In this document: one piece after another, positions 8,312-11,139 of the stretch | Layout of the letters: each line of letters begins with the position of its first letter | Position numbering within the stretch: position 1 is the stretch's first letter | Origin: a virus | Lineage: Duplodnaviria; Heunggongvirae; Uroviricota; Caudoviricetes | Reading direction: 5' to 3' (one strand) | Virus record (IMG/VR): IMGVR_UViG_2711768056_000003 | Span: 1 to 17,533 of that record | Length of the DNA: 17,533 bases | Notes under the pieces: model-generated | What the model was told of the DNA's origin: nothing | What the model saw: only the letters and a program-made list of their open reading frames with translations | Databases searched by the model: none | Translations under genes and position numbers: made by a program

Positions 8312-8608
8312 TCAGAATTGCATATCAATTTGCTTAAAATCCTCGGTGGCGGCCGGGGATTTTTTCTTTGTGATTTCATCAAGCGCATACTTAAAAGCCC
8401 TGCTAATCGGACTGATGTCTGATGCCATTCCGAAAGCACACAAGACCGAAGCAATAAATCTCCAGTCCGTTCTGCTTATCTTCGATTCATGACAGCCAAT
8501 CATCTTTGCCAGACCGCGCTGGGTAAGCGTTGACAGGTTGATGAGTAAATCAGTTTCAGCGCGATCAACGTCACGCTGTGATAGTTTGCTGTAACTTGTT
8601 CTTTCCAT
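8312..8608 (-). CDS. cII: CII-like transcriptional activator
   Basis: 98 aa; C-terminus [18 protein letters not shown] parallels lambda CII KKRPAATERSEQIQMEF; HTH region present; located between cro and the replication genes. Confidence 0.8.
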
Positions 8609-8746: not shown

Positions 8747-8974
8747 TTATGCTGCCAGAAGGTTCTTTTTGCTTATTTCAAGCAATTCGCTTGCTTGATA
8801 TTTGCCACCAGAAATCTCTTCGATTTTTGAGGCGTATTTCGTTTTCCCAAAAAACTCAGTCTTAGGGAGGAAGCCGTTTTTGAGCCACTTATAGACAGCC
8901 CTTTCGCTAACTCCACAAGCCTTCGCAACTTCAGGGATGCCGACACCTTTAATCGGCTCATCAAGATTTTGCAT
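8747..8974 (-). CDS. cro: Cro-like repressor (HTH)
   Basis: 75 aa with HTH (IPEVAKACGVSERAVYKWLKNG); divergent from cI across the operator region; SD AAGGG upstream. Confidence 0.75.
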   Translation of the reverse strand: MQNLDEPIKGVGIPEVAKACGVSERAVYKWLKNGFLPKTEFFGKTKYASKIEEISGGKYQASELLEISKKNLLAA

Positions 8975-9053
8975 AGGAATATCCCTTTTTCGTACTTTTA
9001 GTACGCATTATGGTTGAACTGAAAGTTTTTGCAAGTGCTTTAGTATCGTACTC
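8975..9053. promoter_or_regulatory. OR switch region: PR for cro on the minus strand, PRM for leaderless cI on the plus strand, candidate operators
   Basis: PR: -35 TTGCAA (9029..9034), 16-bp spacer, -10 CATAAT (minus strand of 9007..9012). Candidate operators: CGTACTTTTAGTACG (8991..9005) and TTTAGTATCGTACTC (9039..9053). cI ATG has no SD. Confidence 0.6.
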
Positions 9054-9761
9054 ATGGTTCAGAATGAAAAAGTGCGCAAAGAATTCGCCCAGCGGCTAGC
9101 GCAAGCCTGTAAAGAAGCTGGTCTTGATGAACATGGTAGGGGTATGGCCATAGCCCGTGCCCTTTCTCTTTCGTCCAAAGGCGTTAGCAAATGGTTTAAT
9201 GCTGAGTCTTTACCGCGTCAGGAAAAAATGAATGCGCTTGCGAAATTTCTAAACGTTGATGTTGTTTGGCTTCAGCACGGCACTTCGTTAAATGGAGCGA
9301 ATGATGAAGATACTCTTTCATTTGTTGGCAAATTAAAAAAAGGGTTAGTGCGCGTGGTTGGTGAGGCAATTCTTGGTGTTGATGGTGCCATCGAGATGAC
9401 CGAAGAGCGCGATGGGTGGCTCAAGATTTATAGTGATGATCCAGATGCCTTTGGTCTTCGTGTGAAAGGAGACAGCATGTGGCCCAGAATAAAATCAGGA
9501 GAATATGTACTCATTGAGCCTAACACCAAAGTATTCCCGGGTGATGAGGTGTTTGTCAGAACCATCGAAGGACACAACATGATCAAGATTCTTGGCTATG
9601 ACAGAGATGGAGAATACCAGTTTACAAGCATCAACCAAGACCACAGACCAATAACGTTGCCTTATCATCAAGTAGCAAAGGTGGAGTATGTGGCTGGTAT
9701 TCTGAAGCAGTCCCGCCATCTGGATGACATCGAGGCAAGGGAGTGGCTGAAAAGTTCGTGA
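9054..9761 (+). CDS. cI: CI prophage repressor (N-terminal HTH + C-terminal LexA/S24-like autocleavage domain)
   Basis: 235 aa; N-terminal HTH; C-terminal domain with GDSMWP serine motif and downstream lysine typical of S24 self-cleaving repressors; divergent from cro. Confidence 0.9.
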   Translation: MVQNEKVRKEFAQRLAQACKEAGLDEHGRGMAIARALSLSSKGVSKWFNAESLPRQEKMNALAKFLNVDVVWLQHGTSLNGANDEDTLSFVGKLKKGLVRVVGEAILGVDGAIEMTEERDGWLKIYSDDPDAFGLRVKGDSMWPRIKSGEYVLIEPNTKVFPGDEVFVRTIEGHNMIKILGYDRDGEYQFTSINQDHRPITLPYHQVAKVEYVAGILKQSRHLDDIEAREWLKSS

Positions 9762-9878: not shown

Positions 9879-10259
9879 ATGAATGATCTTGATAAGAAAA
9901 AGTACGACCAAGTTATTGATTCTGTGAACTTCGCCCTTAGATCGTTGTCAGAGTTATTCGAAGCCCATGGAATGCATGGGATGTATGATCTAACGAATCC
10001 AAGCCTTGATGAGCTAAAATTAGTGTTTACAAGGATGAAAAACGGTGTTGACTCTATTGCTCAAAGCTTTGAGCACATGGTAGAGACAGCAAAGGATATG
10101 GATGCCGCAAGTGCAAGCATAAATGTTATGAACATCAAACAAGGATTGATGTATGCTGAATCACTATTGCTTGCTGTAGAGAAATTAGACTATGATAAAT
10201 GTGTGGAAGCAAATACGCAGATAAAAACCCACGATCTTCCACCAACCCAATGGCCTTAA
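9879..10259 (+). CDS. Hypothetical 126-aa protein in the rex position (candidate lysogen-expressed cargo gene)
   Basis: ORF directly downstream of cI on the same strand, in a visibly AT-rich segment; predicted soluble, helical; no family recognised. Confidence 0.6.
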   Translation: MNDLDKKKYDQVIDSVNFALRSLSELFEAHGMHGMYDLTNPSLDELKLVFTRMKNGVDSIAQSFEHMVETAKDMDAASASINVMNIKQGLMYAESLLLAVEKLDYDKCVEANTQIKTHDLPPTQWP

Positions 10260-10430: not shown

Positions 10431-10440
10431 TGCCTACATA

Positions 10441-10469
10441 ACCCGGCCTCAGCGCCGGGTTTTCTTTGC
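10441..10469 (+). terminator. Rho-independent terminator closing the cI-side (immunity) transcription unit
   Basis: ACCCGGC-cucagc-GCCGGGU (7-bp GC-rich stem) followed by TTTTCTTT. Confidence 0.7.
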
Positions 10470-10636
10470 CTCACGATCGCCCTCCCATATTTAATAGCCG
10501 CAAATGTGGTAAACCGCGAACCAACTCACCAGCAATAACCACTCCAACTACAGACCAATCTGCAGCATTTACAAAAATAAATTTCCTTATATATCAAAAT
10601 CATATATCGCAGCATTAATAAATCACAAAATTTCGT

Positions 10637-10676
10637 ACCAATAGTTCTTGATAATGTCGAACTATTGGTTCATTAT
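10637..10676 (+). promoter_or_regulatory. Candidate pL promoter overlapped by a perfect inverted repeat (candidate operator)
   Basis: -35 TTGATA (10648..10653), 17-bp spacer, -10 CATTAT (10671..10676); 11-bp perfect inverted repeat ACCAATAGTTC (10637..10647) / GAACTATTGGT (10659..10669) spans the -35 and spacer; TTTCGTAC upstream shares an 8-mer with OR. Confidence 0.45.
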
Positions 10677-10722
10677 TGTCACATCAGCAGGACGCTGGAA
10701 GCCAAACGGAACAGACTGGCAG

Positions 10723-10768
10723 GCTCTTTAAACAACGTCGAACTCTCGACTACGTGGCTGAAAAGCCA
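10723..10768 (+). promoter_or_regulatory. nutL candidate (boxA, small hairpin, boxB hairpin)
   Basis: GCTCTTTAAACAACG (boxA-like, rrn-boxA-like), GTCGA-acuc-UCGAC, uacg, then UGGCU-GAAA-AGCCA (5-bp stem, GAAA tetraloop); between pL and N. Confidence 0.6.
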
Positions 10769-10866
10769 GATCACCCAACCACATAAGCTGTGGGATGCAA
10801 TGCCGAAGCAACCGTCTCAGGAGGGGCTTCGAGATTGCATCGCCAAAGTTTATTCGGGAGGAATCT

Positions 10867-11139
10867 ATGTCCAGAAAAACAGAATTTAAAGGCACCGCAG
10901 CTTCTCGCCGTAGAGCTCGTCGTGCAAATCTGCAAAGTCAGGAGGCGATCAGCTCCGACAAGCTACACAGGCCAACCCCTTCACGAGTGGTCTTGCAATG
11001 CAAGCGCAAACCAGCAATGAGAGCAGAAGTAATAACACTGACAACGTTGACCAGAAAATATGAAGGCTCAACTTGTCTTCCAAACGTAGCTCTTTACGCG
11101 GCAGGCTACCGTAAATCCAAACAACTGACAGCGAGGTAA
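10867..11139 (+). CDS. N: N-like transcription antiterminator (arginine-rich motif)
   Basis: Start at MSRKTEFKGTAASRRRARRANLQ with ARM resembling lambda/P22 N; SD GGGAGG upstream; first gene after pL/nutL. Confidence 0.75.
   Translation: MSRKTEFKGTAASRRRARRANLQSQEAISSDKLHRPTPSRVVLQCKRKPAMRAEVITLTTLTRKYEGSTCLPNVALYAAGYRKSKQLTAR

Follow-up and report, generated by a model that had tools for sequence, protein, structure and literature searches.

We conclude that the two hairpin-bearing elements found in the 17,533-nt stretch of DNA analysed here (the window) are very probably the leftward and rightward nut sites of a lambdoid prophage with an N/nutL region of the VT2-Sakai/Stx type, and that the small hairpin between boxA and boxB is probably a 'reducer' stem-loop of the H-19B type. 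The assignment as nutL and nutR had been proposed in an earlier reading made from the letters alone (the sequence-only reading), and it was borne out by the position of the sites, by the neighbouring N gene and by a covariance-model search that returned two sites. The window holds a lambdoid immunity and early-regulation region, with replication genes further left. nutL lies ~45 nt downstream of a match to a pL-like promoter and 98 nt upstream of the N start, and nutR lies on the minus strand between cro and cII, so that one copy stands between pL and N and the other past cro (Table 1).

In both window sites, a short hairpin is preceded by a boxA-like sequence, CGCUCUU(U)A..., and the UACG linker and the GAAA tetraloop are the same in nutL and nutR. 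The two hairpins and the tetraloop are present in both copies as first described. The earlier statement that both stems differ between the copies and still pair was correct with regard to compensatory changes: three of the four pairs common to the small stems differ, every change being compensatory, and the boxB stems differ by a single compensatory pair (G-C vs. C-G). However, the small stem of nutR has 4 bp and not 5, and the G of 'ACAACG' had been counted twice when the sequence was divided into its parts. A search of the whole window against Rfam 15 at the gathering threshold matched no family. In the GenBank record of a related phage, the 46-nt equivalent of nutR is already annotated as 'signal'.

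Table 1. Features of the two nut sites and of the early region around them, in window positions.
Feature	Position	Strand	Description	Basis
nutL boxA	10723-10736	+	GCTCTTTAAACAAC (RNA GCUCUUUAAACAAC); rrn-like, extended, 3' end ACAAC	
nutL spacer hairpin	10737-10750	+	GUCGA-ACUC-UCGAC; probable H-19B-type 'reducer' stem-loop	-4.3 kcal/mol fold, covariation
nutL linker	10751-10754	+	UACG, single-stranded (YACG family-wide)	
nutL boxB	10755-10768	+	5-bp stem UGGCU/AGCCA, GNRA tetraloop GAAA; presumably bound by the arginine-rich motif of N	
nutR boxA	8738-8724	-	GCTCTTTGTAACAAC (RNA GCUCUUUGUAACAAC), 9 nt past the cro stop	
nutR spacer hairpin	8723-8712	-	GGAC-AUUC-GUCC, 4-bp stem, same as H-19B nutR	
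nutR linker	8711-8708	-	UACG	
nutR boxB	8707-8694	-	UCGCU-GAAA-AGCGA, 5-bp stem	
N antiterminator gene	10867-11139	+	90 aa, arginine-rich motif GTAASRRRARRANLQ, C-terminus CLPNVALYAAGYRKSKQLTAR	Pfam PF25694 N_peptide, E = 3e-32
Candidate pL promoter	10648-10676	+	TTGATA-17-CATTAT	consensus match only
Candidate pR promoter	9007-9034	-	TTGCAA-16-CATAAT, upstream of cro	consensus match only
cro-like repressor gene	8747-8974	-		helix-turn-helix families
cII	8312-8608	-		PF05269, E = 6e-32
cI-like repressor gene	9054-9761	+	HTH + S24 peptidase	

Several other elements of this region came to our attention. An inverted repeat, ACCAATAGTTC...GAACTATTGGT (10639-10671), overlaps the candidate pL promoter and resembles an oL operator for this immunity type. 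A strong hairpin of the terminator kind, AACCCGGC...GCCGGGTT, with a T-run behind it (10440-10461, plus strand), lies a short way upstream of the pL region and probably ends the cI operon; a 126-aa open reading frame in this putative operon (9879-10259) had no Pfam match. A long interrupted hairpin, GAUGCAAUGCCGAAGC...GCUUCGAGAUUGCAUC (10783-10853, plus strand), occupies the interval between nutL and the N Shine-Dalgarno sequence, a position that recalls the RNase III-processed stem of the lambda N leader; for the 202-nt leader as a whole, the folding z-score is -4.8. In phages that are nearly identical elsewhere, at least six unrelated operator/immunity sequences adjoin the nutL-N module on its upstream side (window ~10624-10703), with a recombination boundary close to ATCAGCAGGA, around the start of the pL transcript.

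The covariance model was seeded with eight nutL-type sequences only, which left nutR outside the seed. Across the 17.5-kb window, it nevertheless returned exactly two sites, nutL at 72 bits and nutR at 40 bits (E = 3e-11). Among 94 diverse loci, the same model gave no more than one site 110-160 nt upstream of N per locus and no more than one opposite-strand site, ~1.3-4.8 kb upstream of N, and both nut sites were found in most of these loci.

For comparison across phages, we used ~275 loci encoding N relatives, taken from IMG/VR and GTDB genomes, together with the H-19B GenBank record. Deduplication left 39 distinct hairpin-to-boxB sequences, or 61 when boxA was counted. The small hairpin was not a selection criterion for these sites, but boxB pairing was, in the set derived by regular expression. 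Since a plain MAFFT alignment of 38 sites misregistered the 4-bp and 5-bp stems, N-padded, structure-registered rows were used, and one spurious match of the regular expression (L151:8228, which has no boxA and lies 3 kb downstream of N) was excluded from the alignment. The order boxA, hairpin, YACG, boxB was widespread, for example in an Enterobacter prophage (L083) and in Stx and other Escherichia and Salmonella phages, and Cronobacter and Pantoea were among the named sources of homologous N proteins. The E. coli-type N/nut module was also present, as a 98%-identical copy, on short contigs of a GTDB bin labelled Segatella copri (L082 and L086); this copy is most likely a binning contaminant and not a Bacteroidota phage.

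The small hairpin occurs in at least seven stem families (GUCGA/UCGAC, GGUGA/UCACC, GGAC/GUCC, GAGC/GCUC, GAUUC/GAAUC, GGCGA/UUGCC, and GGC/GCC), with stems of 3-5 bp and loops of 3-6 nt of unrelated sequence. Across the 39 distinct sites, the outer G-C pair was invariant, pairs 2 to 4 took three, five, and four pair types, respectively, with a single unpaired cell out of 117, and roughly one site in two had a fifth pair. Covariation scored 0.82, compared to 0.17 for column shuffles (none of 500 reached 0.82), and sliding the partners by one to three columns gave only 0.00-0.15. The analysis was repeated on the 61 rows. It is this cross-phage covariation that makes the case for the nutL and nutR hairpins strong, since two copies alone would be weak evidence. 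The boxB helix was 100% paired across the covariance-model matches, with double changes in four of its five pairs, in an alignment that was fitted to the model and is therefore biased towards the modelled structure. Among relatives, the boxB stem can be followed from UCGCU/AGCGA through a G.U intermediate to UCACU/AGUGA. In addition, 81 phages with 98-100% identical N proteins carry 36 distinct leaders, in which polymorphism from boxA through boxB is confined to the four loop positions of the small hairpin. These comparisons support the view that both hairpins are selected RNA structures, as the sequence-only reading had argued from covariation when it called them functional RNA elements. Non-compensatory substitutions, which it had named as the finding that would speak against this, are clearly not the pattern seen in relatives.

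Conservation extended to the sequences on either side of the hairpin. ACAAY, the 3' part of boxA, was present in all 61 distinct related sites. The boxA core GCU[CA]U[UC] was lost in 12 of the 61 natural sites, with ACAAY-hairpin-YACG-boxB retained. The linker had been described as an identical uacg, which is true of the two window copies but not of the family, as five distinct related nutR sites have CACG; the family-wide linker is YACG, not UACG. An apparently invariant UACG was discarded as circular because those sites had been anchored on TACG, and the unanchored covariance-model search was the one that gave the CACG variants.

The stem variants also bear on the strand that is under selection. 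Some of them, such as GGGC/GUCC and GGCGA/UUGCC, contain G.U pairs that are possible on the nut-sense strand only and become A-C or C-A mismatches on the complementary strand, an asymmetry which indicates that pairing is selected on the nut-sense RNA. It could be supposed that the small hairpin acts instead on the opposite strand or as DNA, forming a weak intrinsic terminator of antisense transcription with the U-rich complement of boxA behind it, and a terminator scan does mark 10750-10737 on the minus strand (GTCGAGAGTTCGAC followed by GTTGTTTAAA). However, that scan marked 6 such sites vs. 2.2 expected by chance, and the small stems, with 3-5 bp and -3.8 to -4.3 kcal/mol, fall far below working terminators. 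Given the weak stem and the G.U pairs that work on the sense RNA alone, we rejected this reading, the probability of which we regard as negligible.

When folded, the two-hairpin units took the structure drawn here, with z-scores of -3.5 for nutL and -3.4 for nutR relative to shuffled sequences. The isolated 53-nt nutL and nutR RNAs had a slightly more stable minimum-energy fold, in which boxA pairs with the 3' half of boxB. This fold would suit a functional long-range helix between GGCUCUUU of boxA and GAAAAGCC, the boxB loop and 3' arm, acting as a switch that competes with boxB, and the base before GCU co-varies with position 2 of the boxB stem (G/C in nutL and C/G in nutR). Yet, over the 61 sites, the long-range helix was paired in 80% vs. 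75% for shuffles, its covariation was 0.137 vs. 0.097, and its outer pair was unpaired in 24 of 61; the helix is broken in sites without boxA and in the class with a CGAGAAC boxB loop (see below). The minimum-energy fold of the 202-nt pL leader contains both local nutL hairpins in place of this helix, and boxA, a protein-binding site, is transcribed first. We rejected the long-range helix on its covariation and on the longer leader fold, and we consider it very unlikely to be the functional structure.

The N open reading frame is preceded by the Shine-Dalgarno sequence GGGAGGAA, and the protein begins MSRKTEFKGTAASRRRARRANLQ. The nutL-N segment is 97-98% identical to that of VT2-Sakai, Nil2, and many Stx1/Stx2 phages, whose corresponding gene carries the annotation N. 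A PDB sequence search with the window N found no related solved structure. In the related phages, a change in the arginine-rich motif of N is matched by a change in the boxB loop, at both nutL and nutR of each phage. N proteins with the window-type motif RRR[AE]RRAxLQS go with boxB loops GAAA or GCAA, which are true GNRA tetraloops; those with the H-19B motif RRRERLKAKALANG (RRRERLKAKA) go with GACAA; and those with GKDNAKSRRNARRAEEAIKAR go with CGAGAAC and a linker that is 3 nt longer. The H-19B specificity class combines a GACAA pentaloop with RRRERLKAKALANG, whereas the window has GAAA at both sites and RRRARRANLQ in its N protein, and, as far as sequence can tell, the window N/boxB pair is a sister specificity class and not H-19B itself. 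No description of the window-type GNRA-tetraloop boxB and its N motif was found in the literature searched, and the sequence is common in Stx phages. In the solved P22 complex, the boxB loop GACAA takes the shape of a GNRA loop by looping out its C (PMC12550061), and GACAA minus this C is GAAA, the window loop.

The third class was located at L125:4536-4590 (+) and L125:1432-1465 (-), as well as in L126-L132, L174, L176, L183, and L186. Its boxB is GGUGC-CGAGAAC-GCACC or GCCAC-CGAGAAC-GUGGC, with the heptaloop hairpin 3 nt further from YACG, its N protein starts MANIVYGKSLNPVGKDNAKSRRNARRAEEAIKAR, and the spacer hairpin is kept (GAGC/GCUC in nutL and GGAC/GUCC in nutR). More generally, N proteins are mosaic, with at least four arginine-rich N-termini (window, H-19B, P22, and phi21 types) and different middles, and a nearly identical C-terminus (CLPNVALYAAGYRKSKQLTAR) is common to the N proteins of all three matched classes and to P22-like and phi21-like N.

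In Shiga-toxin phage H-19B, whose NUT sites have been used by Sen and colleagues, two hairpins were detected in nutR by RNase T1 (PMC3526286), and H-19B has the same order of elements as the window: boxA, spacer stem-loop, UACG, and boxB. The spacer hairpin and linker of H-19B nutR (GGAC-AUUC-GUCC-UACG-UCGCU-GACAA-AGCGA) are identical to those of window nutR; H-19B nutL reads GAUUC-GAAUAU-GAAUC-UACG-GCGCU-GACAA-AGCGC, and in both phages the nutL hairpin is unlike the nutR hairpin. Common to the two N proteins are the N-terminal M(S/T)R(K/R)T.FKG, an HRPT.SR segment, and the C-terminus, but they are 41% identical and differ in length (90 aa in the window vs. 127 aa in H-19B) and in the arginine-rich motif (RRRARRANLQ vs. 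RRRERLKAKA), as the boxB loops do (tetraloop GAAA vs. pentaloop GACAA). Full-consensus boxA sequences are present at both window sites, whereas H-19B nutL has none and H-19B nutR has GCUAUUU. Of the traits that mark the H-19B-type NUT RNA, the stem-loop in the spacer of both sites is present in the window, and the importance of pairing rather than sequence is reflected in natural variation.

A mutant study of H-19B by Neely and Friedman, dating from 2000, is said to have found that N requires NusA and that NusB, S10, and boxA are not required. Changes in one arm of the spacer dyad reportedly inactivated the site and compensatory changes restored it, while deletion of the dyad reportedly had little effect, and the stem-loop is said to have been described as a sequence-independent 'reducer' that shortens the spacer and draws the flanking sequences close to each other. 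If deletion is tolerated and a one-arm break is not, then the covariation seen here reflects a need for pairing and not necessarily a positive function of the hairpin. The sequence-only reading had called the role of the extra boxA-proximal hairpin unknown; with the same architecture and an identical nutR hairpin in H-19B, and with these reported mutants, that description no longer applies. It had also held that a deletion without effect would refute a function, but such an outcome is reportedly the published H-19B result.

The distances within the window sites suit a shortened spacer. With the hairpin subtracted, the spacer is 10 nt in nutL and 11 nt in nutR, compared to 24 and 23 nt with the hairpin unfolded, and P22-type sites, which have no hairpin, likewise measure 10-11 nt, while lambda comes near this with 8-9 nt. 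The pL and pR transcripts each carry boxA, the presumed NusB/S10 site, and then the spacer stem-loop, the single-stranded YACG linker, and boxB. The spacer stem-loop, whatever its sequence, would pair with itself and so remove 12-14 nt of linear spacer, and, once it had folded, the flanking ACAAY (5') and YACG-boxB (3') would lie at a distance of 10-11 nt from the boxA core. The GNRA-capped boxB would be the target of the arginine-rich motif of N and the spacer that of NusA, and the complex would loop onto RNA polymerase, leading to read-through of downstream terminators. We infer these binding partners and the antitermination activity of the window sites, and the reducer mechanism proposed for the window hairpin likewise leans on the reported H-19B genetics.

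A passive role, if the hairpin is indeed dispensable, does not fully explain its retention across phages of Escherichia, Salmonella, Enterobacter, Cronobacter, and Pantoea, nor does it fully account for a closing G-C pair that never varies or for the conservation of ACAAY and YACG on either side. These features, the flanks being conserved in 61 distinct sites, would be accounted for if the small hairpin formed with them a positive docking platform, to which NusA (through its S1/KH domains) or part of N would bind. In lambda, a looped-out boxB base makes a contact and boxA/NusB/S10 are required; such a platform would take the place of both, which would fit the window boxB, whose tetraloop has no looped-out base, and the dozen natural sites without a boxA core that keep the remainder of the module. 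In H-19B nutR, the spacer and boxB, unlike boxA, are protected by N together with NusA/NusG (PMC3526286). The module is also kept over a wide host range, and a merely dispensable insert would not obviously be so persistent. Against a docking platform, the stem varies freely in sequence and length (3-5 bp), as does the loop (3-6 nt), which is not usual where a protein binds specifically; P22-type sites, whose N has the same C-terminus, function although they contain no hairpin; and deletion of the H-19B dyad reportedly has little effect. We consider a docking platform improbable. We are also doubtful of a broader proposal, in which the hairpin is a composite docking site (most plausibly for the S1/KH domains of NusA) that frees this widespread N family from needing a looped-out boxB base and often a boxA core and in which, separately, RRR[AE]RRA with a GNRA boxB (GAAA or GCAA) forms a class distinct from those of lambda, P22/H-19B, and phi21, alongside the CGAGAAC-heptaloop class.

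These results place the early antitermination module of this prophage in the H-19B class, which in many Shiga-toxin phages controls delayed-early expression and hence, indirectly, the expression of Q and toxin. The comparative set provides natural-variation support for the 'pairing, not sequence' rule across several enterobacterial genera, and it adds to the known case in that the linker is YACG rather than UACG. It also distinguishes three classes in which N motif and boxB loop are matched, and in one of them the loop is a true GNRA tetraloop; the three could serve as orthogonal peptide-RNA pairs.

The lambda nutL and nutR sites resemble those of the window in the order of boxA, spacer, and boxB and in genomic position (pL-nutL-N and cro-nutR-cII), and lambda boxB likewise has a 5-bp stem, closed by a U-A pair beneath a loop that is purine-rich and GNRA-like. 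Lambda N, like the window N, has an N-terminal arginine-rich motif, although the sequence search from the window N did not match it. The lambda spacers, to which NusA binds (PMC2724277), are linear (9 nt in nutR and 8 nt in nutL) and contain no hairpin, unlike those of the window, and lambda boxB loops out one base of a pentaloop (GAAAA or GAAGA), whereas the window has a tetraloop.

The P22-type system, represented by an E. albertii prophage locus (L085) and by structure 1A4T, has an N protein of the same Pfam family as the window N, ending in CLPNVALYAAGYRKSKQLTAR, and an rrn-like boxA, GCUCUUUAAC. The boxB at L085, GCGCU-GACAA-AGCGC, is that of H-19B nutL, a pentaloop with a looped-out C where the window has a tetraloop, and its spacer is a linear 10-11 nt with neither the hairpin nor the YACG that the window sites carry. 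Near distant N homologues of Erwinia and Pantoea, we observed a further layout (L099:4533, L100:4554, and L101:4641), in which boxA GCUCUUUAACAAU is followed upstream of N by two adjacent stable hairpins that are unrelated in sequence, e.g., CCCUGUG-AAUA-CACAGG and CCGAGGC-GAGU-GCUUCGG; these sites contain no YACG and were missed by the covariance model. The window boxA, GCUCUUUAAACAA, is close to the E. coli rrn consensus, UGCUCUUUAACAA. In rrn sites, however, boxB lies 5' of boxA and is dispensable, and an N protein is not involved (PMC8632103). The spacer-hairpin class itself is already known as the H-19B-type NUT RNA, and the window is largely an ordinary case of it.
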